A stretch of 64,000 nt of DNA from Candidatus Limnocylindria bacterium (GCA_050692055.1 JBOGTC010000013.1:2202-66201); one strand, 5' to 3'; numbered from the stretch's first letter, positions 26,316 through 41,527 are shown. A program made the numbers and translations. The notes: a model not told the origin generated them from the sequence alone.

Positions 26316-28394
26316 TCACGTTCCGCCCTGGGTCACCACCAGCTGCGGCGGCTGGCTGCCCTCGCTGCTGCTGTACCACGTTGCGGGCTTGGCGGTCCCG
26401 ACCAGGACGAAGCTGTAGGTGCCGTCGGCGCCGATGCTGCTGGTCACGTCGAGCTCGACCCAGATCCCGCCGGTCGTGGCGCCGGCGCTGTCGAGCACGG
26501 CCCCGCTGCTGCCCGGGCGCGTGTTCCAGGTGATGGTGGCCTCATCCCAGTCGTTGCTGGCCGCGGCATAGAGGTCACCGCCGCCGGGGCTGGCCTGGAC
26601 CACGAACAGGCGCAGCGTGGCGCTGCTGACCGTGTCGGTCAGTCCGGCGACGCTGAACTTGAGGTAGGAGTCGGAGTTGTTGTCCGGATTGCCATCGCTG
26701 AAGGCGCGCAGGATGGTGTCGTTGCCGTAGTTGGCGTTGGGCGCGGGGCCGCGCACGGTGGCGTCGTCGGTGGGGGTGAAGATCAGCGGCTCGCCGCCAC
26801 CACTGCCGTCGGTGACGGTGATGGTGACGGTGGCGATGTTGCTGTCGTCGGTCCCGTCGTTGGCGGTGTAGGTGAAGGCGTAGTCGCCGCTGAAGCCCGG
26901 CTCGGGGGTGTAGCTGAAGGAGCCATCGGCGTTGAGCGTCACGTCGTCGCCCGGATCGCTGACCTCGGTCGCGGTCAGCGGGTCGCCGTCGGCGTCGGTG
27001 TCGTTGGCCAGCACGCCGGGAGCGGCCACGTTGAGGGTCGTGTCCTGCGGGGTGCTGTAGCTGTCGTCGGCCGCCACCGGCGCGCTGTTGGGCGGCGGCT
27101 CGCCACCTGGATCCTCCACGCCGTTGCAGCCGGCAGTCGTCAGCGCGTTGTGGTGGTGCCAGTAGCGCTCTGCACTGCCGGCCGCCATGACCACCAGCCC
27201 CGTCGTGCTGTTGACGTTCTGCTTGGCGGAGGTGGCGTTGTTCATGGTGTGGGACGCATCGCGCAGGACCGGCTCACCCAGCCCGGCGGGGAAGCTCATG
27301 CCGTTGCGCGCGGCGTCCATGTTGGTGGTCTTGCAGTAGATGGTCTGCCCCACGCTGTTCGACGTCGGCGAGGTGGCGAACAGGTGGACCAGCCGGTTCG
27401 TCGTGTCGAGCATGACGATGGGCCGGGTGTGATCGTCCTGCTCGGTCCCGAACACCGCGGCATCCCACCAGCCCTCGCTGCGGTCGTAGCGCAGCAGGAC
27501 GACGAGCGGGTCCGGGTTGTTGGAGCGGCTGGTCTTGATGGCGGCGAAGACGCGGTCGCTGTTGGGATCGGCCTGCAGCGACTTGAGGTTGATGTGGTCA
27601 TCGGCGTCACCGCCGGCGCTGCCGTAGGCGACGCTGGCCACCTCCCAGGTCGTGTCGGCGCCGGCATCGAGATGCACGGAGAAGTACATCCGGCTGTCGG
27701 GCTGGTGGCTCCACATGACGCCGATCTTGTTGCCGTCGAAGGCGACGACCGAGGCGATGTCGTCGCTGTTGAGGCCGGTCGCGCCGGTGACCGGCAGCGT
27801 GAACTCGGCGCCCCAGGTCGCATCGTCGGTGGTCGAGCGATTGACCTTGACCTCGCCGCCGGCCTCCCAGGCCGCCCACAGCTGTCCGGTCGAGTCACGG
27901 TCGATGGTCAGCGTCTCGGGGTTGGTACCGGTGATCTGGGCCAGGTGGTTCGCCGTCCCGGCGCCGGCGTCGTTGGTGTAGGTGTCGGTGTCGGCGTTGT
28001 AGCTGAAGCGGAACAGGCGGCCGCCGCCGCTGCCACGGGAGGCCACGTACAGCTTGCCCGTGGCCTGGTGCCAGAGCGTGTCGGCCCGCGAGCCCGCTCG
28101 GGTGTCGATCGGCACGCCGGTGTCGGTCCACTGCTGGGTCGTCGCATTGAGACGATGGATGCGGTGCGCTGCGCCGGCAGGGCTGTACATGACCGCCCAC
28201 CAGTGCCCGTCGTTCCACCACAGCTTGCTCTCCGGCTTCTCGCCGGTCGCGGCGCCGCCAACGCCGGTATTGGAAGGACCCTCCCAGCCGAAGTCGCCGG
28301 TGTCCGCCGCGACGGCGGCGGGCAGCATGTTGAGCGCGACGACCAGCGCCAGGACAAAGACCGGCCGGCACCGCCGGAACAGCGAAGGGCACAT
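26316..28394 (-). CDS. Secreted protein P4: BNR/sialidase-like N-terminal domain, cadherin-like/Ig-like domain, DNRLRE (CBM96-like) C-terminal domain
   Basis: ATG at 28394 gives the signal-like MCPSLFRRCRPVFVLALVVALNMLPAAVAA. Family motif ATGEKPESKLWWNDGHWWA...HRIHRL...LYVAS...DDIASVVAFDGNKIGVMWSHQ. Cadherin-like APVAADDSYST...VLANDTDADGDPL...FTYTANDG. DNRLRE-like YGNDTILRAF...SYLKFSVAGL...ATLRLFVV...WDEATITWNTRP. Confidence 0.8.
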   Translation of the reverse strand: MCPSLFRRCRPVFVLALVVALNMLPAAVAADTGDFGWEGPSNTGVGGAATGEKPESKLWWNDGHWWAVMYSPAGAAHRIHRLNATTQQWTDTGVPIDTRAGSRADTLWHQATGKLYVASRGSGGGRLFRFSYNADTDTYTNDAGAGTANHLAQITGTNPETLTIDRDSTGQLWAAWEAGGEVKVNRSTTDDATWGAEFTLPVTGATGLNSDDIASVVAFDGNKIGVMWSHQPDSRMYFSVHLDAGADTTWEVASVAYGSAGGDADDHINLKSLQADPNSDRVFAAIKTSRSNNPDPLVVLLRYDRSEGWWDAAVFGTEQDDHTRPIVMLDTTNRLVHLFATSPTSNSVGQTIYCKTTNMDAARNGMSFPAGLGEPVLRDASHTMNNATSAKQNVNSTTGLVVMAAGSAERYWHHHNALTTAGCNGVEDPGGEPPPNSAPVAADDSYSTPQDTTLNVAAPGVLANDTDADGDPLTATEVSDPGDDVTLNADGSFSYTPEPGFSGDYAFTYTANDGTDDSNIATVTITVTDGSGGGEPLIFTPTDDATVRGPAPNANYGNDTILRAFSDGNPDNNSDSYLKFSVAGLTDTVSSATLRLFVVQASPGGGDLYAAASNDWDEATITWNTRPGSSGAVLDSAGATTGGIWVELDVTSSIGADGTYSFVLVGTAKPATWYSSSEGSQPPQLVVTQGGT

Positions 28395-28597
28395 TGGCGG
28401 ACATTCTCCCCTATCCTGTCTACCGAGCAAGCGGCGCCGCCCGTCAGCTGCCCGGCGATGCGTCGTGGACGCGACGCTGAGGCCCATTGTACTCGGGCGG
28501 GTCGCGGTGGCGAGGGGTGGACTACCGCGCGAGCAAGGAGCATCGGCGTGCAATGTGAACGACGGCTGAACCGATTGATGCCTTCCCAATCGCCGGC

Positions 28598-30157
28598 ATG
28601 AATCGGTCCGTCGAATCCGAGGAGTCGGCGACCCAACGCCCCAGGCCGGAGGCCAGAACGACCAGGCGGCAGATTCGCGGATCGAGCCTTCTGCTGATCG
28701 GGCGCGGCCTCTCAATGGCGGTCAATTTCGGCGTCCAGATCCTGATCGTCCGCTACTTCTCGAAGCCGGAGTTCGGCGCCTACGCCTACGCCCTCTCCGT
28801 GGTCAATGTGGCTTACACGTTCGTGACCTTCGGTCTGGACCGCGCGGTGACGCGTTTCGTGCCGATCTACGAGGAGCAGGGAGCCTACGCCAAGCTCTTC
28901 GGCACGCTCGCCCTCGCATTCGGCGCGGTCCTCTCGCTGGGAACCCTGGCGCTCATCGCCATCTATGGGCTGCGGGGCTGGATCGAGGATGCCCTCATCG
29001 GCGACCCGCTCGTCCTCAGCGTCCTGGTCGTCCTGATCCTGATGGCGCCCATACGGGCGCTGGGCGACGTCTTCCTGGGGTTGATGGCCGTCTTCGCCAG
29101 CCCGCGCGCGATCTTCTTCCGACGTCACATCCTTCCACCGCTGCTGCGGGCGGTCCTGGTGGGCGTGCTGATTGCCGGCCAGTTCGACGTCGTCTTCTTT
29201 GCCGCCGGTACCGTCGTCACGTCCATCATCGGCTCGCTGGCGTATGTCGTCGTCCTGGCCAACGTGATGCGACGGCGCGGTCTCTTCGGCCGCTTTGATC
29301 GAGCCAGCTTACGGATTCCGTTTCGCGAGGTGCTCGGCTTCACGGTTCCGCTGCTGACGAGCGACCTCGTGTTCGTCGTCATGCACGCCTCGGACGCGTT
29401 GCTGCTCGGGTATTTTCACAATGCGCAGGCGGTGGCCGAGTTCCGGGTTGTGCAGCCGGCCGCCGACCTCAACGTCCTGGTGATGGGCAGCTTCACGCTT
29501 CTCTTCACGCCAATGGCCGCGCGCCTCTTCGCTCGACACGATCACGCTGGGATCCATGAGCTGTACTGGCGTACTGCAGCGTGGATGGCCATCCTGTCCC
29601 TTCCGATCTTTCTGCTGACCTTCTCACTTGCTGGCGATGTTGTCGTGGCTCTGTACGGGGATCCGTATCAGGCGTCGGGTGTGTACCTCACGCTGCTGGC
29701 GCTGGGCTACTACTTCAATGCCGCGCTGGGGTTCAACGGCCTGACGCTCAAGGTCTTCGGAAAAGTACGCTACGTCGTCATCATCAACCTGGCGGTGGCG
29801 GTCCTCAACGTGGCGCTCAACCTTCTCCTGATTCCGTCGTTCGGGGCGCTCGGAGCAGCCATCGGCACCCTGATCGCCATGGTGGTCCACAATTTCCTCA
29901 AGCAGGCCGGGCTTCAGCTCGTTGCCGGACTGTCCATCTTCGACCCCGAGTATGCACGCCTGTATGCGCTCATCGCCCTCAGCTCGGTTGGGCTACTCGC
30001 GATCCAGCTGCTGCTCCACCCACCCCTCTACATCGGCTTCGTGCTCGCGGCTGGCATATCGCTGGCCGTCACCGTGCTGAACCGGAAGCTGCTCGACGTG
30101 CCGCGGACATTCCCCGAGCTGCTTCGCATCCCGCTGGTGCGCAGGATCTTCGGCTGA
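28598..30157 (+). CDS. Polysaccharide flippase (Wzx, MOP/PST superfamily)
   Basis: About 12-14 hydrophobic segments. The N-terminus GSSLLLIGRGLSMAVNFGVQILIVRYFSKPEFGAYA is typical of PST flippases. Confidence 0.8.
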   Translation: MNRSVESEESATQRPRPEARTTRRQIRGSSLLLIGRGLSMAVNFGVQILIVRYFSKPEFGAYAYALSVVNVAYTFVTFGLDRAVTRFVPIYEEQGAYAKLFGTLALAFGAVLSLGTLALIAIYGLRGWIEDALIGDPLVLSVLVVLILMAPIRALGDVFLGLMAVFASPRAIFFRRHILPPLLRAVLVGVLIAGQFDVVFFAAGTVVTSIIGSLAYVVVLANVMRRRGLFGRFDRASLRIPFREVLGFTVPLLTSDLVFVVMHASDALLLGYFHNAQAVAEFRVVQPAADLNVLVMGSFTLLFTPMAARLFARHDHAGIHELYWRTAAWMAILSLPIFLLTFSLAGDVVVALYGDPYQASGVYLTLLALGYYFNAALGFNGLTLKVFGKVRYVVIINLAVAVLNVALNLLLIPSFGALGAAIGTLIAMVVHNFLKQAGLQLVAGLSIFDPEYARLYALIALSSVGLLAIQLLLHPPLYIGFVLAAGISLAVTVLNRKLLDVPRTFPELLRIPLVRRIFG

Positions 30158-30159
30158 TC

Positions 30160-31353
30160 ATGCGCATCCTGTACATCACGGACGCCTTTCCGTGGCCGCT
30201 CACCAGCGGCCACCTTCGGCACTATCACCTGATCAGGGGCTTGTCCCGGCGTCACTCGGTGAGCCTGCTGTCCATTGTTGGCGCTGACTTCGATCACCGT
30301 CGCAGCGATGCGCTGCGACCCTTCGCCGAGCGCATCCATACGTTCCCGACGACGGGACGCCGGCCGCCGACCCAGCTGCGCTCCGCCCTGCCATCTCGTG
30401 CCGTGGCGGCCGCGGAGCAGCTGGCACGCGAGGCGCTGGAGCTCACCAAGGACGGCGGCTTCGACGTCTGCCTCCTGACCGGCAGGCGCGCCTACCCGGC
30501 GCTCTCACGCCTGGCGGACATCCCGTTGGTGGCGGACGTGTGCGACGCAACCTCGAGCCGGATGCGCGGCGCGCTGAGCCACGCCGGCGGCTCCAGCAGG
30601 CCGCTGCTCTATCTGCGGTACCTCTGGGCAAGGCATGCCGAGCGTCAGGTGATCGCACGGGCAGAGCATCTCGTCTTCGCATCGCCGCGGGACCGCGATG
30701 CGCTGGTCGATCGCAGGACGCGAGGCCACGCCGCGATCGTGCCGAACGGAGTCGACGACGACTATTGGCGTCGGAGCACGACGCGGCTGGGCAGTCACGA
30801 GGTCGTCTTCACGGGCGCGATGAGCTACCCACCGAATGCGGATGCGGCCGTCTACCTGATCCGCGAGATCATGCCCCGGGTTCAACGAGAGGTGCCCGAG
30901 GCGAGCCTGTCGATCGTTGGCCGCGATCCGACACCCGAGCTGGTGGCTGCCGGCAGCCGCCATGGTGCCACCGTGACCGGCTACGTCGACGACATGCGCC
31001 CTCACCTGGAGCGCGCGGCCGTCTTCGCGGCGCCGCTGCGCTTCGGTTCAGGAATCCAGAACAAGCTCCTCGAGGCGATGGCGATGGAGGTGCCGGTGGT
31101 GGCATCACCGCTGGCGGGCGAAGGGCTCACGACCGAGGACGGGGCGTTGCCACCCATCGGCCTGGCCGAGGATGCCGGAGAGTTCGCCCGGCAGCTCGTG
31201 ACCCATCTGCGCAGCGATCAGCCCGAACCGAGCCGGCTCGGGCGCGCGTTCGTGCAGCAGCACTTCAGCTGGCCCAGCAGCGTCGAGCGGCTCGAAGCTG
31301 TTCTCAACCGCGCCGGAGCACCAACCGAGCAGCGTTCCAGCAGTCAGCGATGA
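30160..31353 (+). CDS. Glycosyltransferase family 4 (stp1-like)
   Basis: ATG at 30160. Has MRILYITDAFPWPLTSGHLRHYHLIRGL... and SGIQNKLLEAMAMEVPVVASPLAGEGL. Confidence 0.85.
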   Translation: MRILYITDAFPWPLTSGHLRHYHLIRGLSRRHSVSLLSIVGADFDHRRSDALRPFAERIHTFPTTGRRPPTQLRSALPSRAVAAAEQLAREALELTKDGGFDVCLLTGRRAYPALSRLADIPLVADVCDATSSRMRGALSHAGGSSRPLLYLRYLWARHAERQVIARAEHLVFASPRDRDALVDRRTRGHAAIVPNGVDDDYWRRSTTRLGSHEVVFTGAMSYPPNADAAVYLIREIMPRVQREVPEASLSIVGRDPTPELVAAGSRHGATVTGYVDDMRPHLERAAVFAAPLRFGSGIQNKLLEAMAMEVPVVASPLAGEGLTTEDGALPPIGLAEDAGEFARQLVTHLRSDQPEPSRLGRAFVQQHFSWPSSVERLEAVLNRAGAPTEQRSSSQR

Positions 31354-32488
31354 AGGGCACCGGATCGGCCCACGAGAAGACAGCGTCCACCTTGCGGCCG
31401 CGGATGGATCGCCACCAGCCACGGAGACTGAGCTCGCCGCGGCGCCAATGGTGCAGCGCGGCCTGGAGGTCGTGGCGCAGGTAGATCCACTTCACGGTTC
31501 CGTAGCGCTGTTTGAGACGATCCGGCAGTGGCCGCCCCGTGGCATCGCAGTACGCCGCGTACAGCAGCTCCACGCCGCCCGCCTCGGCGATGGCGGACCT
31601 GCCGGTGGGCCGGCCGACGTTGGGCTCGACGATGAAGTGCTCGCCGGTGCGAGCGTCGCGCTTCATCTCCACGTAGCCCAGCCCGCGATAGTGGCACGCG
31701 CGAAAGAGCCGAATCGTCTCGCGCAGCACGACGTCGTTGCGCACCTCCTCGCCCAGACAGCTCGTCCCCGTTTCGGGCGGCCACTGGCGAATCTTGCGTG
31801 CCACGAACGTGACGATGGGCTCCGAACGCGCGTCGAAGTAGCAGTTGCAGGAGTAGAGCTGCTCCTCCCCGCCGGCGATCCACTGCTGAGCCAGCAGGAC
31901 GTCAGTCCAGGCCGAGCAGCGGTCGTAGACCGAGAGCATCTCGGCGGCGTCGTGCACCTTGAAGGCCTTCGCTTTCGTTGCCGCCTGCCAGGCCGGCGTC
32001 TTGAGGGCAGGTTTCATGACGCCCGGGTACCGCATCTCGGCGGCGGCGGCCTCGGCATCCTGCCGGCCGCGCAGTACGAACGTCGCAGGAATGGGCAGTC
32101 CCTGCTGCTGCGCATAGGCCACGAAGCGCACCTTGTCCATCAGCACCTCGACCACCTCGGCATCGGGCAGCAGCACGTGATACCAGTCCGACAGCCGTTC
32201 CCGGCCGCGCGAGATGGTGAGCACGCTGAGATCCGTGCATGGAAAGAGAACGGCTCGCTCGCCGAGGCGTGGCCCGAGACGCTCGAGGGCGCGCAGCAAG
32301 CCCTCGCCCGAGGTTTCCGCCGCGATGATCTCCTCGCATGCCCGCGTTCGCGCGCAGAAGTGGTCGCGCCTGGCGGCGATGCCGACCACCGGGACCTTCC
32401 TGCGGGCCAGGATGCGGGCAGTCTGCAGGCCGGTGATGCAGTCGAGGCCGACGACGACCGCCGCCGGCCGCCCGCGCGTGGCGATCAC
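31304..32488 (-). CDS. ATP-grasp carboxylate-amine/thiol ligase-like protein (COG3919-type)
   Basis: Has AAVVVGLDCITGLQTARILARRKVPVVG, KVRFVAYAQQQGLPIPATF, YPGVMKP, LLAQQWIAGGEEQLYSCNCYF, and YRGLGYVEMKRDARTGEHFIVEPNVGRPTG. GTG at 32488 is preferred. The ORF extends to an ATG at 32569, which would overlap the upstream gene by 62 nt. Confidence 0.7.
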   Translation of the reverse strand: MIATRGRPAAVVVGLDCITGLQTARILARRKVPVVGIAARRDHFCARTRACEEIIAAETSGEGLLRALERLGPRLGERAVLFPCTDLSVLTISRGRERLSDWYHVLLPDAEVVEVLMDKVRFVAYAQQQGLPIPATFVLRGRQDAEAAAAEMRYPGVMKPALKTPAWQAATKAKAFKVHDAAEMLSVYDRCSAWTDVLLAQQWIAGGEEQLYSCNCYFDARSEPIVTFVARKIRQWPPETGTSCLGEEVRNDVVLRETIRLFRACHYRGLGYVEMKRDARTGEHFIVEPNVGRPTGRSAIAEAGGVELLYAAYCDATGRPLPDRLKQRYGTVKWIYLRHDLQAALHHWRRGELSLRGWWRSIRGRKVDAVFSWADPVPFIADCWNAARLVLRRG

Positions 32489-32507
32489 AGGCTGTCGAGT
32501 CGCGACG

Positions 32508-33407
32508 CTAGCGCGTCGTCGCGATCTCGTCCTCGAGGGAGATCGCCTCTGACGTGCCAACCAGATCAAAGACGTGGTTCACCGAGGCGATCGAGCCATC
32601 CACCGAGGCCGCCGTCCGTTCCCGGGCGAGCGTTGCCAGCGTCTCTTCGATCGCCTGGATGGCGGCGCGCATCGGCTGATTGGCGAGGATGACCATCTGG
32701 AAGCCCTTCTCTCGCAGCTGCTCGGCACTGAACGACGGGAAGAGCGTCGGCACGGCGACGAGGGGAGTCTTCCCGAGGCCGCCCCATTGCCCAAGGAAGC
32801 CCTCGATCTCCCCCAACGTCTTGTCGCGGGAATGGATGAGGATCGCATCGGCACCGGCATTGACATAGGCATCGGCACGCTGGCACGCGTCCTCGATGCC
32901 GTGGCCGGCGATGAGCGACTCGATGCGGGCGATGAACACGAAGTCGTCGCTCTGCTGGGCAGACTTCGCGGCTCGGATGCGGCGAGCCTGCTCCTCGACC
33001 GGGATCAGCTCACGCTTGGACTCTCCCAGGTACAGGCTGTTGCGCTTGGGGAAGAGATTGTCCTCGACGCAGATGGCCGCGATGCCGGCTCGCTCATACT
33101 CGCGGACCGTGCGGACGACGTTGGAGAATCCGCCGAACCCGTTGTCGCAGTCGGCCACCACCGGCAGATCGGTCGCGGCGTCCATGCGGACGGCAGCCTC
33201 GAGCGCCTCGCTCATGGTGATCAGGTTCAGATCCGGCATCGCGTAGGTCATGGTCGAGACGGCCAGGCCGCTCACCCACACAGCGTCGAAGCCATTAGCC
33301 TCGATCAGCTTCGCGGTCAGGGCGTCATGCGCCCCAACAGCCAGGACCGGCCTCGGTCCCTGCAGCCCGTTGCGCAGCGCCTGCCTCTTGGCGTCAGCCT
33401 TCGTCAC
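32508..33407 (-). CDS. PEP mutase-like enzyme of the isocitrate lyase/PEP mutase superfamily (motif EDN-x5-NS)
   Basis: Has AVGAHDALTAKLIEANGFDAVWVSG, VVADCDNGFGG (metal-binding Asp pair) and CVEDNLFPKRNSL. It lacks the KRCGH motif of methylisocitrate/isocitrate lyases. Confidence 0.65.
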   Translation of the reverse strand: MTKADAKRQALRNGLQGPRPVLAVGAHDALTAKLIEANGFDAVWVSGLAVSTMTYAMPDLNLITMSEALEAAVRMDAATDLPVVADCDNGFGGFSNVVRTVREYERAGIAAICVEDNLFPKRNSLYLGESKRELIPVEEQARRIRAAKSAQQSDDFVFIARIESLIAGHGIEDACQRADAYVNAGADAILIHSRDKTLGEIEGFLGQWGGLGKTPLVAVPTLFPSFSAEQLREKGFQMVILANQPMRAAIQAIEETLATLARERTAASVDGSIASVNHVFDLVGTSEAISLEDEIATTR

Positions 33408-34348
33408 TTGGCGATCCCCTCTTTCTCATTGCCTTCGAGCGCTCGGATGATGCGGACGATCTCTCGACCGATCTCGCGTTGCGAATCGATGGTGGTGGCC
33501 CCGATGTGCGGGGTCAGGATGACATTCGGCAGCGCGGCGAGCGGCGAGATCTTGCCCTCGCCCTCCTGCTCGTGCACGTCCAGGCCGGCACCGGCGAGAC
33601 GCCCCTCGGTCGTCAGCTCCCGATGAAGGGCCTCCTCGTCGACGACTCCCCCACGTGCCATGTTGACCAGGAAGGCGCCCGGCTTCATGGTGGCCAACGC
33701 TGCGGCGTCGATCAGCCGATGGCTGGACTCCTTGAGCGGCACGTGGACGCTGACGAAGTCGGCCTCCCTCAGCACGGCCGCGCAGTCCATCAGCTCGATG
33801 CCGGCGTCGGCCAGCTCCTGGGCTCGCGTCGAGCTCGGCGACTCCACGCAGCCGATGACACGCATGCCCCAGGCGGCTCCCAGGCGCGCGACCTGTCCAC
33901 CGATGTTGCCGACGCCGATGACGCCCAGGGTTTTTCCGACGAGGAGGTGGCCGATCACCTCTCCCTTGGCCCAGTGGCCCTGGCGCAGCAGGCGGTCTGC
34001 AAGCATGATCTGGCGCGCCAGCGCCAGCATCAGCCCGAAGCTGAGCTCCGCGACCGCCTGCGCTCCAGGGCCGGGAATGCGCTCCAGGCTGATGCCGCGT
34101 CGCCGAACCTCCTCGAGATCGAGGTTGTCCAGGCCGGACCCGGCCCGGATGATCGTCCTGAGCTGCGGTGCGCACCCCAGCACCGCCGCGCTGACGCGGA
34201 CGCCACTGCGAAAGACGAGGACCTGCCGATCACCGATGAGCGACTTGATGCGGTCCTCATCCGCGTTCAGGGCGAACACGACGTCGTGGCGCGAGCTCAG
34301 GTACTCGACCGCCCTGTCGTCGATCGAGCTGGCAACGAGGATCCTCAT
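33404..34348 (-). CDS. D-isomer-specific 2-hydroxyacid dehydrogenase (3-phosphoglycerate dehydrogenase-like)
   Basis: Has GSGLDNLDLEEVRRRGI, GKTLGVIGVGNIGGQVARL (NAD fold), VSVHVPL, LVNMARGGVVDE and TPHIGATT. It has 4-nt overlaps with both neighbours. Confidence 0.85.
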   Translation of the reverse strand: MRILVASSIDDRAVEYLSSRHDVVFALNADEDRIKSLIGDRQVLVFRSGVRVSAAVLGCAPQLRTIIRAGSGLDNLDLEEVRRRGISLERIPGPGAQAVAELSFGLMLALARQIMLADRLLRQGHWAKGEVIGHLLVGKTLGVIGVGNIGGQVARLGAAWGMRVIGCVESPSSTRAQELADAGIELMDCAAVLREADFVSVHVPLKESSHRLIDAAALATMKPGAFLVNMARGGVVDEEALHRELTTEGRLAGAGLDVHEQEGEGKISPLAALPNVILTPHIGATTIDSQREIGREIVRIIRALEGNEKEGIAK

Positions 34349-35067
34349 CGCTGTCTCGCCGAAGCGGCGACGGCTCGGCGGCCGCGACGACGCTGTTGGT
34401 GGAACCGCCGCACGAGCCGGGCAACGTCCCCCACCACCGCATCGAGCGGCCGATCAACGTCGACCAACGCAAAGGCAGGGGCCAGCCCGGCCGTTTCGAG
34501 ATACTCGCTCCGCCGGCGCTCGAGCGACTCGAGCGTTCCTTCGCCCTTCCGCGCGAGAAGGACCGCGGCGGGGGCATCCAGGTAGATCACCAGGTCCGGC
34601 CTCGGATACACGCGCCGCAGCAGAAGACCGTGCAGGCGATTGGCAAGAGGGCGTCCTCTCCCTGAGTTGATCACGTCGTAGGCATGGTAATCGGCGAGGA
34701 AGTGCCGATCGAAGATGACGATCTTCCCGCGCCGGCGATGGTAGGACGCCAGGGCCTGCCGGAACCATTCCTCCCCGATCCAGTTGGCCATCCGCAGCGC
34801 GGCCTTCAGCTCCCGCCGGGCGCGCGACATGGGGCCGGCCGCACCGGGATCTCGCTCCGTGTCGGAGGCGGCCACCATGTCTGATCGGCCTCCTCGCGCG
34901 CGCTTCAGGGCCAGGACCAGGCGAGTGGTAGGCAGCATCACCCCACTGGATTCAAGGTTGACGCCCATGTACAGATACTTGGCTGGAAGACCGAGCTTGC
35001 GCTCGAGCAGCCGGGCGACTGTGGTCTTGCCCGCCCCGTCGGGCCCGATGAGCGCCACCGTGAACAT
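34345..35067 (-). CDS. P-loop NTPase / small-molecule-kinase-like protein (thymidylate-kinase-fold-like)
   Basis: Walker A ALIGPDGAGKTT. IVIFDRHFLADY is Walker-B-like. PDLVIYLDAPAAVLLAR is lid-like. Paralog of 50192-51118. Confidence 0.6.
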   Translation of the reverse strand: MFTVALIGPDGAGKTTVARLLERKLGLPAKYLYMGVNLESSGVMLPTTRLVLALKRARGGRSDMVAASDTERDPGAAGPMSRARRELKAALRMANWIGEEWFRQALASYHRRRGKIVIFDRHFLADYHAYDVINSGRGRPLANRLHGLLLRRVYPRPDLVIYLDAPAAVLLARKGEGTLESLERRRSEYLETAGLAPAFALVDVDRPLDAVVGDVARLVRRFHQQRRRGRRAVAASARQR

Positions 35068-35077
35068 CGCGTTCTCC

Positions 35078-36184
35078 TCAGCTCAGGTGAGGAGCCATGG
35101 CGTCGAACAGCGCCGCCACGGGGATCGGGTAGGGGTGACGCACGATATAGCTTGGCCTTCCCTTCAGCATCCGGGCAAGCTGCTGGTGCTCGCGTTCCGT
35201 CACGTGATCAAGCAGGTCGTTTCGTCGCTCGGGGAATGCGAAGCGAAACTTCAGGTAGTAGGCCACCAGATCCAGCCGCTCATGGTGCAGCGAGAAGGCC
35301 ATTCGCGCAGCAACCTCATCCGAATCGATCGGCTCGACGGTGACCCGCTCGCTGGCGTGACTCACCACGAAGAAGATGCGCTCCGGCGTGCCGCCAGCCC
35401 TGCATGCCGCTTCACCGAAGAGCCGTTCCGGCGCAAGATGGACGAAGAGTTGGCGCTCGATCAACGGCATGGCGCGCCGCATCATGGCGCGTGGGCCGCC
35501 ACCCTGCCGTGCGCCTCGCGCGAGGCGCGTCACCGAGGCCAGACCACCGAGCCGCGCCCGATCACGCCATCCGACCCGGCTCCGATATTCCGGCACCTGT
35601 GAGAGATGCCAGTCCCACAGCTTGATCGGCTCGGGCAGCCCGACCATCCGCCTGCCCCCGTCAGCGAGGTACACCCACTCGTCACCGATGTAGCTCGCGC
35701 CGTTGCGCATGAACGCCAGGAGGGCTTCCGTCTTGCCACCCTTGGCCCATCCGGTCACCAGGGCATCCATGCCGCGGTACTGGAACGCGGAGGCGTGCAG
35801 AGCAACGGCGTCGTTGCCGAGCGCCGTCAGGTTGATGATGGGCACCAGCAGCGGAACGGCAGGCACGCCACGCTCACACACGATCTCGCACGATCGTCCA
35901 ACTCGGTCGAGCGGGATCTGCACCCGGGCACGTGCCTTGTACTTGCTGCGCAGCACGAGAAAAGCGTCGTCGGTGTAGGCAGCGTCATCCAGCCCGACCA
36001 GTCGCGGTGTCGAGCTGAGCGACAGGCGATCGACGAATCGGATCACGATGTCTGGCTCGCGATCCAGGTTGCCCTGAAGCGGCCCGAGCTGGCGGTCCAC
36101 AGCCGCCGCATCCCGCGGAGCGGCGTCGATCAGACGAATGCCAACGAGGCCGTGAAGGTCATAGTCAATGCGCTCGCTAGGCAC
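35078..36184 (-). CDS. HPr-kinase-C-terminal-domain-like (HprK-related) kinase
   Basis: LHASAFQYRGMDALVTGWAKGGKTEALLAFMRNGASYIGDEWV matches the HprK pattern HAS..v..G.GvLi.G.SG.GKSe.AL.L...G..lv.DD. GTG at 36184 overlaps the upstream epimerase stop by 8 nt. The longer ORF to 36352 would overlap it heavily. Confidence 0.6.
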   Translation of the reverse strand: MPSERIDYDLHGLVGIRLIDAAPRDAAAVDRQLGPLQGNLDREPDIVIRFVDRLSLSSTPRLVGLDDAAYTDDAFLVLRSKYKARARVQIPLDRVGRSCEIVCERGVPAVPLLVPIINLTALGNDAVALHASAFQYRGMDALVTGWAKGGKTEALLAFMRNGASYIGDEWVYLADGGRRMVGLPEPIKLWDWHLSQVPEYRSRVGWRDRARLGGLASVTRLARGARQGGGPRAMMRRAMPLIERQLFVHLAPERLFGEAACRAGGTPERIFFVVSHASERVTVEPIDSDEVAARMAFSLHHERLDLVAYYLKFRFAFPERRNDLLDHVTEREHQQLARMLKGRPSYIVRHPYPIPVAALFDAMAPHLS

Positions 36185-37163
36185 TGGCCGCTTGTGCGAG
36201 CGTCGAGGCTCGCTCCCGAACCTGCCGCTCGATCCAGCGATAGGTCGGGACCAGGCCCTCCTCCAATGAGATCTGCGGCTCCCATCCCAGCACCTCACGC
36301 AGGCGCGTGTTGTCGGAGTTTCGCCCGCGGACCCCCTGCGGACCCTCGACATGGCTGAGGGTGATGTCCTTCTTGCCGGAGATGGCGATGATGATTGCCG
36401 CCAGCTCGTTGATGCTCACCATGCGGTCGGTCCCGAGGTTGATCGGATCGCCGTGGTCTGACTGCATGATCCGGTAGATCCCCTCGACGCAATCGTCGAC
36501 GTGGCAGAAGGACCGCGTCTGTTCGCCGTCGCCCCAGATCTCGACCGTTCCCCCGGACTCGGCCGCGGCCACCTTCCTGCACAACGCCGCCGGCACCTTT
36601 TCGCGTCCGCCATCGAAGGTGCCGTTCGGGCCGTAGATGTTGTGGAAGCGTACGACGCGAGTCTCGATACCGTGCTCGCCGGTGTAGTACGTGCACAGCA
36701 GCTCCGAGATCAGCTTCTCCCAGCCATAGGCATCCTGTGGCTGGGCCGGGTATGCATCCTCCTCCTTCAGCGGCTTGACGTTGGCATCTGTCTGCAGGAA
36801 CTCTGGATAGACGCAGGCGGAGGAGCTGTACAGGTAGCGGCCCACGCCGTGCTCGCGGGCAGCCTCCAACGTATGAAAGTTCATGAGCGCGTTGTTGTAG
36901 AGGATCGTTGCGTGGTTGGCCGAGATGAAGCCCATGCCTCCCATATCCGCCGCCAGGGCATAGACCTGGTCCACCCCGCGCGTTGCCTCGACACACTCTT
37001 CCCGCAGGCGGAGGTCCCGGATCTCGAACTCATCCGCATCCACCTCGGTGAACTCCGGGTACTTGATGTCCACGCCGCGGACCCAGTAGCCCCGCTCTTT
37101 CAGGTATGTCACCAGGTGATGGCCGATGAATCCACCAGCCCCTGTCACGAGAACTCGCTGCAC
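36177..37163 (-). CDS. GDP-mannose 3,5-epimerase-like NAD-dependent SDR
   Basis: Has VLVTGAGGFIGHHL, LAADMGGMGFI, SSACVYP, YGWEKLISE (YxxxK), RFHNIYGP and GVRGRNSDN. Confidence 0.85.
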   Translation of the reverse strand: MQRVLVTGAGGFIGHHLVTYLKERGYWVRGVDIKYPEFTEVDADEFEIRDLRLREECVEATRGVDQVYALAADMGGMGFISANHATILYNNALMNFHTLEAAREHGVGRYLYSSSACVYPEFLQTDANVKPLKEEDAYPAQPQDAYGWEKLISELLCTYYTGEHGIETRVVRFHNIYGPNGTFDGGREKVPAALCRKVAAAESGGTVEIWGDGEQTRSFCHVDDCVEGIYRIMQSDHGDPINLGTDRMVSINELAAIIIAISGKKDITLSHVEGPQGVRGRNSDNTRLREVLGWEPQISLEEGLVPTYRWIERQVRERASTLAQAASA

Positions 37164-37413
37164 CGTGATGCTCCTCCCTAGGATTCGATGATCGTCCCGC
37201 GACGCGATCGCTTCGGGGACGCTGGCTATCGTGCAGCATAGGCGTCATTCGGACCAGTACCCGAGCAGTACTCCTGTTGAGCGGAGTCACCGCTTTTCGG
37301 TCCGCGTGCTTGGAGGCTGCGTGGGGCTATCATATGATGCCGCGGCCCAGGAGGGGCCGCACCACGCGTCCGGCGCGTTCGTTTGTGAGGGGGGGACAAG
37401 GCTGATCACAGGA

Positions 37414-38529
37414 ATGAGGGCGCGCCCCGTGGATGTCATGCTGGGCACTTCAAGCAGCGAGTCGGCGGTCCATCCCGTCCTGCGCCAGCTATTCGCCGCG
37501 CTCGAACAGAACCGCGTGCGCTGGTGCGTGCTGCGCGGAGAGGATCGGCTCGATGGCACGGCCGGAGACGTCGATATCCTGGTGGCCGGCGGCGATCGGG
37601 AACGGCTGCGCCGCATCGCGAGTGAGCTTGGCTTCGCTCGCATTCCGTCGTGGGGCTACGTATCGCATCTCTTCCTGCTGGCGTACGATCCGCGAAGCGA
37701 CCGCTGGCTCAAGCTCGACGTCGTCAGCGAGCTGGCGTTCGGGCCGTACTACTCGTTGCTGCTGCCAGCGGCGGACGAGTCTCTCCTGCATCGTCGGACG
37801 CAGGATGGGGTGGCGCTGCTATCCGATTCGGATGCCTACTGGGCGCTGGCGCTCCACGCCCTGCTGGACAAGCGGGAGGTCACCGACAGCCAGGCCGCGC
37901 GCCTCAAAGAGCTCGAGCCCCGAACGAGCGGCCGGGGCGCGATCGAGCGCGAGCTGACGAGGCTGGCGCCCGACGGCTGGATCGGTCGCTTCAAGCGCTC
38001 CCTGGAGCGCGGAGAATCGGTCGGCTTCGGCCAGTATGCCGACGAGCTCTCCAGAGCCTGGACGCGGCGGCAGCGCGGCGCGAGCTGGCGACGAAGGATC
38101 GCGGGCTTCATATTGCGTCGGGCCGCGGTGGTGCTTCGATTGCGCCAACCACGCGGCATGGGTGTGGTGCTGAGGCCCACCGGGCAGGCCGCCATGCTCG
38201 CGGCCGATCTTCGACGATCGTTCTACTTTCCGGTCAGGTGGCTGTCAGCCGAGGCGGCAGGCCGCGGGCCTGCCAGCCTCCTCGCCGAGATGACCCGCCG
38301 GCTGCGCTTCAGGCTCATGCGGAGCCGCGGCGCGCTGATCGTGTTGGACTGTCCCGCTCCGAGTGATGAAGATGAGTTGGTTCGTTGCGGCGGCATTGCA
38401 CCGGACGTGGTGATTGCCATCGCGCCTGGTAACGACCGCGGACAGCTACGACGCGAGGTCACCGCCGCGCTATGGCAGGCCCTCGCCGCTCAATGGAAGA
38501 AGAACGAGAGCCGAGCGAACCACCGCTAG
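37414..38529 (+). CDS. Two-domain hypothetical: nucleotidyltransferase-like N-domain (GDVDILV) plus a P-loop-kinase-like C-domain with a destroyed Walker A
   Basis: N-domain RWCVLRGEDRLDGTAGDVDILVAG...LGFARIP...YDPRSDRWLKLDVV. C-domain GVVLRPTGQAAMLAADLRRSFYFPVRWL ... RGALIVLDCPAPSD ... APDVVIAIAPGND aligns with the P-loop protein at 50192-51118. The start is uncertain (37414 or 37438). Confidence 0.5.
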   Translation: MRARPVDVMLGTSSSESAVHPVLRQLFAALEQNRVRWCVLRGEDRLDGTAGDVDILVAGGDRERLRRIASELGFARIPSWGYVSHLFLLAYDPRSDRWLKLDVVSELAFGPYYSLLLPAADESLLHRRTQDGVALLSDSDAYWALALHALLDKREVTDSQAARLKELEPRTSGRGAIERELTRLAPDGWIGRFKRSLERGESVGFGQYADELSRAWTRRQRGASWRRRIAGFILRRAAVVLRLRQPRGMGVVLRPTGQAAMLAADLRRSFYFPVRWLSAEAAGRGPASLLAEMTRRLRFRLMRSRGALIVLDCPAPSDEDELVRCGGIAPDVVIAIAPGNDRGQLRREVTAALWQALAAQWKKNESRANHR

Positions 38530-38541
38530 AAGGAGCCCAGC

Positions 38542-39741
38542 GTGCGTATCCTGGTTTGCGCCTCCGATACCCCTCTGCCACCCACCAATACCGGCTACCG
38601 CCGACAGCTCCAGGGTCTGCTGCCGGAGCTGCGCAAGCGGAACGATGTCAGCTTCATCGGCTACCGAATGCCAGATCAGGAGCCGCCACTGCAGGACCAG
38701 CCGGGCACCCGGATCATCTCTTACCAGCGTCCGGGAGCCGCGGGCAACGTGGCCGACATCGCGCTCGCCTTCCTGCAGCAACGGCCGCTGCGGGCGCACC
38801 GCTTTGCGGCGGGGCTTCGCCAGGCGCTGCACGACGAGCTTCGCGACTTCAAGCCGGATGTCATCCACGTGGGGCCGGGGAAGCTGGCCGGGCTATTGCC
38901 AGACCTCGCTGGACGGCCCTCGGTGCTGGGCGTGATGGACACCTGGCACCTCAACGTCGAGGCACGGGCGACCACAGCGGGTGGGCTGCGCGCCGCCCTG
39001 CTGCGTAGCGACGTCAGCCGCATCCGACGGTTCGAGGCCAACCGCTACCGGGGCTGGGACCGAGTGGTGCCGAGCAACGAGGATGATCTCGAGACCCTCC
39101 GCTCCCTCGATCCGACCCTGCCCCTGGCCCTGATCCCGATCGGCTTCGACGCGAGCGCCTACGCACCGGACCCCCATGCCGTGCGCGATCCCAATCGGAT
39201 CATCTTCCACGGGGCGATGGCGTACGCGCCCAATATCGTGGCGGCCGAGTTCCTCGCCCGGCAGGTCCTGCCGCGCGTTCGAGCCGTTCGGCCGCAGGCC
39301 CACCTCGCGATCGTCGGCCGCGACCCGGCGCCTCGCGTGGAGGCGCTGGGAAGCCTGCCCGGAGTGACGGTGACCGGCGGCGTGGACGACATGCGCTCAT
39401 GGCTCACCGGCAGCCAGGTTTGGGCCGGGCCCTTCCTCTCGGGCACCGGCATCAAGACCAAGCTGCTCGAGGCCATGGCAACGGATCTGCCGTGCGTCGT
39501 CACCCCGCTCGGCGGTCGCGGGCTCGACCTCTCATCCGGCAGCTTCATGGTGGGATCGACCGAGGAGGAGCTGGCCACCCTGCTGGTCAAGGTCCTGGAG
39601 GACGACGAGCACGCGCGCAGTCTCGGCCGCGCCGGTGGGGATTACGTCCGCTCGCGCTACGACTGGCCAGTGGTCGGGAGGGCCTTCGAGCGGCTGTACG
39701 AGGACGTCATCGCCGAGAAGGCGGTACGGGCTGCCGGCTGA
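38542..39741 (+). CDS. Glycosyltransferase family 4 (stp1-like), paralog of 30160-31353
   Basis: GTG start. Has RILVCASDTPLPPTNTGYRRQLQGLL and TGIKTKLLEAMATDLPCVVTPLGGRGL. Confidence 0.85.
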   Translation: MRILVCASDTPLPPTNTGYRRQLQGLLPELRKRNDVSFIGYRMPDQEPPLQDQPGTRIISYQRPGAAGNVADIALAFLQQRPLRAHRFAAGLRQALHDELRDFKPDVIHVGPGKLAGLLPDLAGRPSVLGVMDTWHLNVEARATTAGGLRAALLRSDVSRIRRFEANRYRGWDRVVPSNEDDLETLRSLDPTLPLALIPIGFDASAYAPDPHAVRDPNRIIFHGAMAYAPNIVAAEFLARQVLPRVRAVRPQAHLAIVGRDPAPRVEALGSLPGVTVTGGVDDMRSWLTGSQVWAGPFLSGTGIKTKLLEAMATDLPCVVTPLGGRGLDLSSGSFMVGSTEEELATLLVKVLEDDEHARSLGRAGGDYVRSRYDWPVVGRAFERLYEDVIAEKAVRAAG

Positions 39742-39772
39742 TGGCCCCCGCGGATTGGGCAGTGACCTGTCG

Positions 39773-41527
39773 GTGAGCGGCCCGGCGCCGGGCGCGGGTG
39801 CCACGCTAAGGCTGGCGGTCGGTCCCGACCTGGGCCCCGGCGAGAATGTTGCCGGAGACGTCAGTGGCGCGGCCTGGACCTATCTCCTGCCGCGGCGACA
39901 GGTGCGCGCCATTCTCAGCCTGGGACACCTGCCCAGCGCGACGGAGAGGACGCTGCTCGACATCGCCGAGGAGCTGATCGTCACGCCTGACTCGGGCATC
40001 GCCGAGGGCCGATCCACCGAGGGGGACGCGACCATCCGGGAGCTCGGCCCCGTCCAGGGCGCGCGGTGGCCGCTGGCCGACGCCAGCGTCGAGCTCATCG
40101 TTGCAACCGACCGGGCATGGACGCGCAGGCTGGCGGAGGAGCCCGCGCTGGCCACCGATCTCCAGAGGGTCGTGACGCCGGAGGGCTTCATCTTCGTCCA
40201 GCTCGCCGGCGAGCCCGAGCTTGCCTCCGGTGACGGTCACCTGCCGGCCGGCTTCGCCCGCCGCGACCTGCTCTGGCTGAGCACCAGCAGCGACGAGGTT
40301 CGCGCGGCAGCGCCCGCGCGCGATCGGTGCGCGATCCGGTTCCTCGTGAGCCACTCGCGGAAGAGAACCGGTGCGTGGCTTCCATCGCGCCTGCGCGATC
40401 TGACGAGGCGGCTACGGGGTCGACGAGTCCCGTCCGCCCTGCTGCAGAGCACCGGAGCAGTGCGCTGGCGGGACGGCTCACAGGGTCTGGATGCCCCGCC
40501 GCAGTACTTGATCGAGGCGGCCGCCTCGGCAGGGCTGGACATCTCACGCCATGGCTGGGCGCTCGTCGAGCCCGGCACCTATCTGACGAAGAAGCCGCTC
40601 ATCTTTCTCTTTGCGCCGGAGAGCCCCAAACCGGAGCTCGTCGTCAAGCTCGCTCGGGAGGCCCGACTCAACCATCGCGTCGAGAACGCGCTGCGGGCCC
40701 TCCAGATGCTCGACGGTCAGCCCTCCACGCTGCGTCGCGCATTCCCCCGCGCAGCATTCTCCGGCGAGCACGGTGGCCTCGCCTTTCTGGCCGAAACGGT
40801 CATCCATGGCACCCCGCTCCAGGAGCACCTCGCGCGACAGGCCTCCGATGCCCAGCTGCGAGGCATGGTCGAATGGCTGATCGATCTGGGACTGGCCACG
40901 GCCGATGCCGGCGTGGCGACAGCCACCGAGATTGCGGGCGGCCTGGACGAGATGCTGCAGCAGTTCATCGCCATCTACCGTCCGGCTGAGCGTTATCGGC
41001 GATTCCTGGCCGCACAGATCGAGCGGGTCTCGATGGCGACTGCCCCTTTCCCGCTCGTGCTTCAGCATGGCGACGCCGGCACCTGGAACGTCCTGGTCGA
41101 CGAGGACGCGCAGCCCCATCTCATCGATTGGGAGGCATCCGTGCCGCATGGCCTTCCGCTCTGGGACCTCTTCTACTTCTTTCGCAGCTTCGCCGTCAGG
41201 GAATCGAAGCTCCGAGGCTCCCGCGACACGCTCGCCGCATTCATCCGACAATTCTTGCAGGCCGGCCCGCTCCTCGCCCCGCTGTCACAGTCGTGCGCGC
41301 GCTTCTGCGCGGAATCGGGTCTCGAGCCACGCCTCGTCGAGCCGCTCTTCTACACCTGCTGGATGCACCGTGCGCTCAAGGAGGCCAGCACGCTTGCCAC
41401 CTCGAGCCTCAGGCATGGCCATTACGTCAAGCTGCTGCTCCGCTGCATCGACGCTGATCAGGCCCCCGGGCTGTCGCACCTGTTCGGCGGCGCCATGGGC
41501 CGTTCGGTTGGGAGCGACCGGTCGTAG
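39773..41527 (+). CDS. Two-domain protein: Rossmann/methyltransferase-like N-region plus an APH-fold kinase C-domain
   Basis: GTG at 39773 is the first start after the upstream stop (the ORF opens at 39635 inside the GT4 gene). The kinase loop is LVLQHGDAGTWNVLVDEDAQPHLIDWEAS. The N-region has ILSLGHL...ADASVELIVATD...PEGFIFVQL. Confidence 0.6.
   Translation: MSGPAPGAGATLRLAVGPDLGPGENVAGDVSGAAWTYLLPRRQVRAILSLGHLPSATERTLLDIAEELIVTPDSGIAEGRSTEGDATIRELGPVQGARWPLADASVELIVATDRAWTRRLAEEPALATDLQRVVTPEGFIFVQLAGEPELASGDGHLPAGFARRDLLWLSTSSDEVRAAAPARDRCAIRFLVSHSRKRTGAWLPSRLRDLTRRLRGRRVPSALLQSTGAVRWRDGSQGLDAPPQYLIEAAASAGLDISRHGWALVEPGTYLTKKPLIFLFAPESPKPELVVKLAREARLNHRVENALRALQMLDGQPSTLRRAFPRAAFSGEHGGLAFLAETVIHGTPLQEHLARQASDAQLRGMVEWLIDLGLATADAGVATATEIAGGLDEMLQQFIAIYRPAERYRRFLAAQIERVSMATAPFPLVLQHGDAGTWNVLVDEDAQPHLIDWEASVPHGLPLWDLFYFFRSFAVRESKLRGSRDTLAAFIRQFLQAGPLLAPLSQSCARFCAESGLEPRLVEPLFYTCWMHRALKEASTLATSSLRHGHYVKLLLRCIDADQAPGLSHLFGGAMGRSVGSDRS

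Follow-up and report, generated by a model that had tools for sequence, protein, structure and literature searches.

Asn117 as a fixed signature of an uncharacterised branch of the PEP mutase family with a distinct cassette in a predicted surface-glycan locus

The stretch of DNA analysed here (the window; 64,000 nucleotides from a Candidatus Limnocylindria bacterium, GCA_050692055.1 JBOGTC010000013.1:2202-66201) carries, at positions 32508-33407 of its reverse strand, a gene for a 299-residue protein of the phosphoenolpyruvate (PEP) mutase (PepM) family, in which the lid motif reads EDN-x5-NS in place of the usual EDK-x5-NS. Sequence comparisons indicate that the Asn residue, Asn117, is fixed in, and marks, a widespread branch of the PepM family that is as yet uncharacterised and that combines this altered signature with a distinct gene cassette in a locus for a cell-surface sugar polymer. 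We favour, with moderate confidence, the reading that the gene encodes a working PEP mutase of a distinct Asn-lid lineage, that the reductase encoded beside it pulls the equilibrium to phosphonolactate, and that kinases and an ATP-grasp ligase attach the product to a surface glycan.

Conservation of the asparagine lid

The features of the gene that bear on this finding are as follows.

32508..33407, reverse strand: PEP-mutase-like gene, 299 residues, GTG start, overlapping with the stop codon of the dehydrogenase gene upstream (GTGA)
33036..33065, reverse strand: lid motif E115-D116-N117-L-F-P-K121-R-N123-S124, with the Asn codon AAT at 33057-33059
33012..33014, reverse strand: codon CGT of Arg132, at the far end of the lid; invariant in the clade, equivalent to Gln130 of the Mytilus PepM, and co-varying with residue 117

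The 299-residue protein matches the Pfam family PF13714 (PEP_mutase) over profile positions 4-238 of 240 (E 3.4e-55, 187.7 bits). On the reverse strand, positions 33036-33065 read GAG GAC AAT CTC TTC CCC AAG CGC AAC AGC, and the EDN-x5-NS lid described in the original prediction was reproduced exactly, both in this sequence and in the translation of the open reading frame (ORF). The same translation agrees with the earlier statements that K121, the N123-S124 pair and the upstream DxD metal site are retained, the last as VADCDNGFGG (D86 and D88), and that the lyase motif is absent: KRCGH was sought in the 299-residue protein and not found, the loop being PKRNSL.

The lid is evidently no chance feature, as EDN-x-FPKRNS was present in 121 of 121 sequences, namely the query and its best 120 database homologues, which are 71-100% identical to it. 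It had been suggested that an alignment to close homologues would reveal whether Asn is conserved within a clade, and it is: Asn117 was invariant in all 122 aligned clade members (~67-100% identical), including P0003, which is 99% identical to the query, is listed on a different contig and keeps the Asn. Of the 299 positions, 88 do not vary among the Actinomycetota and Chloroflexota sequences of the same 122-member alignment, a sign of strong purifying selection on the clade protein. The Asn codon was compared in 14 homologous loci, some in named genomes and others in the taxonomic family of the organism, and was AAC in 11 and AAT in 3; the third codon base drifts while the amino acid is held.

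The possibility of a base-call error, raised originally, and likewise that of a faulty assembly or of gene decay, in which the true codon would be AAA or AAG or the protein inactive, is negligible, for although AAT is one base from AAA and ends in A/T in a gene whose third positions are 86% GC, the Asn is held in 122 of 122 relatives, including P0003 on its other contig, is encoded by both of its codons in the 14 loci, and lies in a protein with 88 invariant positions.

Position of the clade and the residues of the lid

Relatives were sought among 1.84 billion sequences, each the representative of a cluster at 50% identity. After this clustering the clade is reduced to one full-length representative (P0122, 68% identical to the query), and the next matches beyond it are no more than 51% identical, with a drop in score from 429 to 279 bits; the identity of the clade to any EDK protein is likewise at most 51%. 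The lids of the 150 best representatives are of the form EDK..K.NS in 89 cases, and the rest include EDN..NS, EDN..CS, EDN..HS and EDQ..NS lineages; EDN types are over-sampled in this set, which consists of the best matches to an EDN query.

In a careful maximum-likelihood analysis of 105 sequences, with four EDQ...KRCG lyases as the root, the lyase clade and the PepM-like ingroup each received a support of 100/99. All 42 sampled EDK-x5-NS sequences fall within one 53-row clade (support 90/87). The query clade (11 rows, 100/100) lies outside this EDK-containing clade, among basal EDN-type lineages with a weakly supported backbone. A quick tree is concordant, with a corresponding 55-row EDK-containing clade at a Shimodaira-Hasegawa-like approximate likelihood ratio (SH-aLRT) support of 98. 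Because the query clade is placed outside the EDK clade, Asn117 is no recent K-to-N point change, and Lys was probably never present at position 117 in the query lineage. That Asn is the ancestral state is suggested only, since the EDN backbone is weak and the support of the EDK-containing clade is just 90/87. The original description of a single-nucleotide difference thus holds for the codon itself, AAT being one base from AAA, but is misleading as a framing, given the identity of at most 51% to EDK proteins, the position outside the EDK clade and the other fixed changes (Q132R, F140Q and T89N).

The residues W44, G47, D59, D86, D88, E115, K121, N123, S124, R161 and H192 of the query are invariant in the 122 clade members, and S46 is Ser in 121 of them. 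Their counterparts in the Mytilus PepM, identified by alignment to the PDB sequence, are W44, S46, G47, D58, D85, D87, E114, K120, N122, S123, R159 and H190, which we take to serve in metal binding, in phosphoryl binding and in the lid. On this assignment, the acids of the Mg2+ site (Mytilus D58, D85, D87 and E114) are all kept, as D59, D86, D88 and E115, and so are the phosphoryl-binding and lid residues (Mytilus K120, N122, S123, R159 and H190), as K121, N123, S124, R161 and H192. Four positions conserved in EDK proteins are fixed otherwise in the clade, namely K116N, Q130R, F138Q and T88N in Mytilus numbering (K117N, Q132R, F140Q and T89N in the query).

Among solved structures, the query is closest to the PepMs 5unc (3e-65) and 1m1b (1e-59), and the phosphonopyruvate hydrolase (PPH) structure 2dua matches at 1.9e-60. 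The top NCBIfam model is TIGR02320, for PepM, with 273.2 bits, followed by those for PPH (220) and methylisocitrate lyase (180). For TIGR02319, the carboxy-PEP mutase model, the score was 109.6 against a cut-off of 420, and where the full filter motif is EDK-x5-NS, the query has EDN-x5-NS.

Among all 299 positions, residue 132 is the best tracker of residue 117. In the 50%-identity representatives, 85 of the 88 sequences with K117 have one of Q, H and N at position 132, and 23 of the 30 with N117 have R or K there. In the lyases, residue 117 is Q and residue 132 is K or R, and 5UNC, 1M1B and the hydrolase 2DUA have K and Q at these two lid positions. Three Asn forms are nested among the EDK sequences: L026 (N,R), whose sister is P0142 (K,Q; support 100/89), P0176 (N,K), whose sister is P0201 (K,Q; support 99/70), and P0215 (N,R). 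The combination of Asn117 and Arg132 looks like a relocated positive charge, and the charge at the base of the gating lid may sit at either end of it; we infer the proximity of N117 and R132 from the location of the two positions at the two ends of the lid. A literature search on the roles of the lid residues returned nothing relevant.

Phosphonate clusters with EDN-x5-NS genes and the cassette in the window

A metagenome scan was seeded with P0158, an EDN-PFPKQNS protein fused to a nucleoside triphosphate (NTP) transferase, and gave three informative loci, L023, L024 and L025. In L023, which is that of P0158, the gene for the EDN-NTP transferase fusion is followed by one for a thiamine pyrophosphate (TPP) enzyme, whose best family match is the phosphonopyruvate decarboxylase Ppd (190 bits, below cut-off), and the convergent genes encode an Fe-alcohol dehydrogenase and a 453-residue cupin, which matches methylphosphonate synthase 6B9S at 6e-81 and HEPD 6B9R at 2e-65. 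In L025, a stand-alone EDN-PFPKQNS gene stands in a same-strand row with genes for an aspartate-type aminotransferase, a B12/radical-SAM enzyme with its best match in the P-methyltransferase family, Ppd (TIGR03297, 428 bits against a cut-off of 312.5) and an NTP transferase. The lid in L024, EDNVFPKRNS...KREL, has the signature of the query, and its gene is divergent from those for a split TPP enzyme, an NTP transferase and an Fe-alcohol dehydrogenase.

No second PepM-family gene was seen among the ORFs scanned in L023, L024 and L025. The substrates of Ppd and of methylphosphonate synthase/HEPD are only phosphonates derived from phosphonopyruvate (PMC8942020; bioRxiv 10.64898/2026.01.15.699783). 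Since the EDN gene is the sole PepM-family gene seen in these loci with Ppd or a methylphosphonate-synthase homologue, they provide strong contextual evidence that EDN-x5-NS proteins can be PEP mutases, and because EDN-x5-NS genes sit in phosphonate clusters, the Lys of EDK is probably dispensable for mutase activity.

Two further observations concern these loci and their relatives. At 5488-8414 of L025, two tandem genes of the type-I phosphodiesterase/nucleotide-pyrophosphatase family stand ahead of the EDN PepM-Ppd operon, and the same relative position in L024 is occupied by a phosphodiesterase-family gene and a sulfatase-family gene. Other lids were also found in fusion proteins. In P0123, P0126, P0135, P0139 and similar proteins of ~550 residues, the lid is EDN-x-FPKRCS, in which Asn and Cys replace the Lys and Asn of PepM, with K-R-C as in the lyases; these proteins are fused to a MobA-like NTP transferase, the architecture of the published Ppm-PntC fusions. 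The 801-residue proteins P0156 and P0279 (Nannocystis sp. SCPEA4 and N. radixulma) contain a PepM-like domain with the lid EDN-Q-HPKRNS, P0185 contains the same type of domain with EDH in the lid, and in P0156 the domain is fused to an AMP-binding adenylation domain, a fusion that, to our knowledge, is not familiar from phosphonate pathways.

In the window, the genes around the PEP-mutase-like gene are as follows.

26316..28715, reverse strand: large protein with cadherin-like/Big_9 and CBM96 domains; relatives lie beside the PepM-like gene in L009 and L011
28598..31353, forward strand: Wzx-type flippase (28598-30157) and group-1 glycosyltransferase (within 29581-31353), convergent; glycan context, with homologues in related loci
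31304..32569, reverse strand: ATP-grasp ligase, longest ORF 421 residues; weak ATP-grasp matches, and the true start may be a GTG near 32487
33404..34348, reverse strand: short phosphoglycerate-dehydrogenase (PGDH)-like D-2-hydroxyacid dehydrogenase, 314 residues, PF02826/PF00389; proposed phosphonopyruvate reductase
34345..35067, reverse strand: P-loop kinase, 240 residues, weakly dTMP kinase-like; homologue in 9 of 12 related loci
35078..36184, reverse strand: P-loop protein of ~368 residues with a PEP-carboxykinase (PEPCK)/HPr-kinase fold and the Walker A motif GWAKGGKTE; homologue in 6 of 12 related loci
36177..37163, reverse strand: short-chain dehydrogenase/reductase (SDR) sugar-nucleotide epimerase/reductase, GDP-fucose-synthase-like; head of the minus-strand gene row

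The dehydrogenase scores 249.7 bits with TIGR01327, under the cut-off of 454, and its closest PDB match is the short phosphoglycerate dehydrogenase 1WWK (1e-70). The 368-residue protein had no match in Pfam, NCBIfam or the PDB sequences; its AlphaFold model (pLDDT 86.9) matched ATP-dependent PEPCK (E 1.5e-6, TM ~0.5) and HprK/P (1e-5) in a fold search. Standing beside a mutase that uses PEP, a protein modelled with this fold could supply PEP or phosphorylate the product.

Synteny was assessed by tblastn with the neighbouring proteins of the window against 12 related loci, in which the PepM-like genes are 67-72% identical, from Geodermatophilaceae, Blastococcus, Geodermatophilus, Marmoricola, Acidimicrobiia/Acidimicrobiales, unclassified Actinomycetota, Chloroflexia and Anaerolineales. 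The PGDH-like dehydrogenase was present in all 12, directly upstream of the PepM-like gene in 10, and the ATP-grasp gene in 9, directly downstream in 8 and nearby in the ninth; the Wzx flippase, group-1 glycosyltransferase and CBM96 proteins also recur near the gene in related loci. Seven Streptomyces loci from the genome scan (L016-L022) were set aside, as identity there is only 34-35% and none of the window's neighbouring genes recurs in them.

Of 120 other genomes searched from the taxonomic family to which the organism belongs, 2 carry the gene, at 73% identity, and the cassette is therefore an accessory trait and probably mobile. Neither Ppd nor PhnJ was found in the 89.75%-complete genome, in which the only other PF13714 matches are an EDQ...KRCGH lyase and PanB. 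This lyase, of ~390 residues with the lid EDQVLPKRCGH, is the only other enzyme of the isocitrate lyase (ICL)/PEPM superfamily in the genome (contig C111; L002 1351-2544) and was used as an outgroup.

Further observations were made around the cassette. In L009 (4857-9894) and L011 (3269-9882), one an Anaerolineales metagenome-assembled genome (MAG) and one an unclassified bacterial MAG, repeated CBM96-type modules, which are relatives of 26316-28715 of the window, occupy the gap that separates the dehydrogenase gene from the PepM-like one. Beside the cassette in the window lie two large forward-strand ORFs with no NCBIfam match, at 37231-38529 (432 residues) and 39635-41527 (630 residues), and a relative of the 630-residue protein lies at the edge of L011.

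Proposed function, alternatives and comparison with known systems

In the proposed pathway, the predicted EDN mutase would convert PEP to phosphonopyruvate, a reaction with an unfavourable equilibrium, and the PGDH-like reductase, with phosphonopyruvate as its presumed substrate, would form phosphonolactate and thereby pull the mutase equilibrium, mirroring the branch point of valinophos biosynthesis. A 2-hydroxyacid dehydrogenase is a published means of pulling phosphonopyruvate (PMC8942020; bioRxiv 10.64898/2026.01.15.699783), and the reductase is the only pulling enzyme visible, because no Ppd was found in the genome at its 89.75% completeness. All steps beyond phosphonolactate are conjectural: as a guess, the two P-loop kinases and the ATP-grasp ligase might phosphorylate and/or ligate the three-carbon phosphonate or a derivative of it, and the phosphonate might, by a further guess, be installed on the glycan exported by the neighbouring Wzx machinery. 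The product is likely to be a glycan decoration of the phosphonolactate type, as judged from the gene content. In the lid, the Lys of EDK would be non-catalytic, and a basic residue at the other end (Arg132, which is Gln in the solved PepMs) would presumably take its place, as in the lyases with their Gln and Lys.

Of the three readings offered originally, a functional variant mutase is the best supported, by the retained catalytic residues, the reductase gene with its GTGA overlap and the EDN genes beside Ppd and a methylphosphonate-synthase homologue, and the base-call error has been rejected above. Several points weigh against a working mutase. The clade departs from EDK proteins at further well-conserved positions, T89N and F140Q, and its TIGR02320 score of 273.2 is below the curated equivalog cut-off of 319.55. 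The Ppd-linked EDN proteins also fall under that cut-off (300.7 and 272.1), and because they too miss it, the score of the query is no evidence against function. These Ppd-linked genes are only 43-46% identical to the query and appear to have no supported placement relative to the query clade, so that function need not transfer; the mutase function of EDN-type proteins is itself a prediction from sequence and gene context. In this superfamily, mutase and phosphonopyruvate hydrolase are believed to differ by one substitution in the active site (PMC3266647). As to the pairing of residues 117 and 132, the independent-pairs test yielded five pairs in the careful tree, none of them contrary, but is under-powered (p = 0.125), with three pairs in the quick tree, all in the same direction, and L023 has Asn117 with Leu at 132.

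A different function of the scaffold is rather unlikely in our judgement. By this account, the PepM scaffold would have been neofunctionalised for a reaction other than that of the mutase. Its substrate would be some 2-oxo or enol acid resembling PEP or phosphonopyruvate, perhaps a phospho-acid with three carbons on which the PGDH-like and PEPCK-fold neighbours also act, and the decoration would not be a phosphonate. The position of the clade outside that of all sampled EDK-x5-NS sequences at no more than 51% identity, the score below the TIGR02320 cut-off and the fixed changes K117N, Q132R, F140Q and T89N at conserved positions are consistent with it, as are neighbours that are odd for phosphonate clusters: the cassette has two kinase genes but lacks genes for Ppd, an aminotransferase and a nucleotidyltransferase. 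Small active-site changes are, moreover, thought to switch function in the family (PMC3266647). However, all PepM metal- and phosphoryl-binding residues are invariant, including N123-S124, R161 and H192, other EDN-x5-NS proteins are found within clusters with Ppd or a methylphosphonate-synthase homologue, where a mutase is required, and a PGDH-like reductase adjoining PepM follows a known phosphonate logic (PMC8942020).

A catabolic enzyme like phosphonopyruvate hydrolase, which would cleave the C-P bond, is improbable. Although the PPH structure 2dua is the second-best solved relative (1.9e-60) and the active site of PPH differs very little from that of PepM (PMC3266647), PPH has Thr (EDK...TS) where the query keeps Asn123 (EDN...NS), and the TIGR02321 score is 220.4 against a cut-off of 374.4. 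The genes scanned next to the query included no phosphonoalanine transaminase, phosphonate transporter or LysR regulator, and the context is one of glycan biosynthesis.

More improbable still is an enzyme of the ICL branch that acts as a C-C lyase or decarboxylase, for example one like methylisocitrate lyase or oxaloacetate decarboxylase. Asn or Gln at 117 with a basic residue at 132 is indeed a lyase-type arrangement, but the Cys-Gly-His of K(K/R)CGH is absent, with the PepM-type N-S in its place, the lyases form the separate clade supported at 100/99, the TIGR02317 score is 180 against a cut-off of 354, and the genome has its own EDQ...KRCGH lyase elsewhere (L002).

The exact motif EDK-x5-NS serves, as had been stated originally, as the discriminator of true PEP mutases in survey papers: in the published inventories of phosphonate producers, a PF13714 protein is retained only if it has that motif (PMC6697681, PMC8942020, PMC12723261), and one marine study relaxed the filter for near-misses only if Ppd or MpnS was adjacent (bioRxiv 10.1101/2020.11.04.368217). 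Because the clade has neither the Lys nor Ppd, it is invisible to these surveys, and the NCBI equivalog model also rejects it; no description of an EDN PepM variant was found in the literature searched. If the protein is a true mutase, the phosphonate biosynthetic potential of soil Actinomycetota and Chloroflexota has been under-counted, and the 'diagnostic' Lys is a lineage marker and not a functional requirement. The proposed pathway would further represent a new type of phosphonate-bearing surface glycan, testable in cultured Geodermatophilaceae, among which Geodermatophilaceae bacterium URHB0062 (L004) and Geodermatophilus sp. LHW52908 (L010) carry the cassette, and the paired change at 117 and 132 provides a concrete mutagenesis hypothesis for the role of the Lys.

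Nucleotidyl transfer is the dominant route in known phosphonate tailoring. In a broader scenario, which is possible and which we put forward tentatively, EDN with Arg132 would be the ancestral lid of the C-P bond-forming enzymes, common to the lyases, and EDK with Gln would have arisen later, in one crown group. It would follow that the formation of C-P bonds is older and far more widespread than motif-filtered surveys show. The query clade, for its part, would feed a new decoration of surface glycans, derived from phosphonolactate, in Actinomycetota and Chloroflexota of soil, and two kinases and an ATP-grasp ligase, not nucleotidyl transfer, would activate it.

Compared with known systems, the query resembles the phosphonopyruvate hydrolases (PalA, 2DUA; TIGR02321) as close structural relatives (1.9e-60) with the same metal site and lid architecture, whereas their lid is EDK...TS and that of the query EDN...NS, and the PPH operon is catabolic and the query context biosynthetic. 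With the isocitrate and 2-methylisocitrate lyases (EDQ...K(K/R)CGH), it shares an amide residue after E-D, either Gln or Asn, and, at the end of the lid, a basic residue two positions ahead of a conserved Leu/Val; in contrast, the catalytic Cys-Gly-His is absent from the query, and the lyases form a separate, well-supported clade.

The EDN genes of L023, L024 and L025 share the EDN-x-FPK-x-NS lid with the query and also score below the TIGR02320 cut-off, and those of L024 and L025 have Arg at the position of R132. Two of the three proteins are fused to an NTP transferase, unlike the query, and their partners are Ppd, Fe-alcohol dehydrogenase, a methylphosphonate-synthase homologue or a radical-SAM methyltransferase-like enzyme, whereas those of the query are the dehydrogenase, the kinases and the ATP-grasp ligase.

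At the early branch point of the valinophos pathway, the PepM VlpA and the 2-hydroxyacid dehydrogenase VlpB form phosphonolactate (PMC8942020). The window is similar in that the PepM-family gene stands directly beside a PF02826 dehydrogenase gene, without Ppd, and with an ATP-grasp gene in the same cassette. It differs in its two P-loop kinases, its Wzx/glycosyltransferase glycan locus as opposed to a small-molecule cluster, and its EDN-type mutase. Among the neighbours, Pfam and NCBIfam scans showed other-fold kinases and an ATP-grasp protein only, and the cassette revealed no homologue of the later Vlp enzymes, in a comparison made by description and not with the Vlp sequences.

Finally, the query shares with the canonical PEP mutases (PepM/Ppm/AepX, EC 5.4.2.9; Mytilus edulis 1M1B/1PYM, and 5UNC) the PF13714 fold, the Mg2+ and phosphoryl residues and the lid core FPK-x-NS, and differs from them in that Lys116, Gln130 and Phe138 of the Mytilus enzyme are Asn, Arg and Gln in the query, at an identity of no more than 51%.

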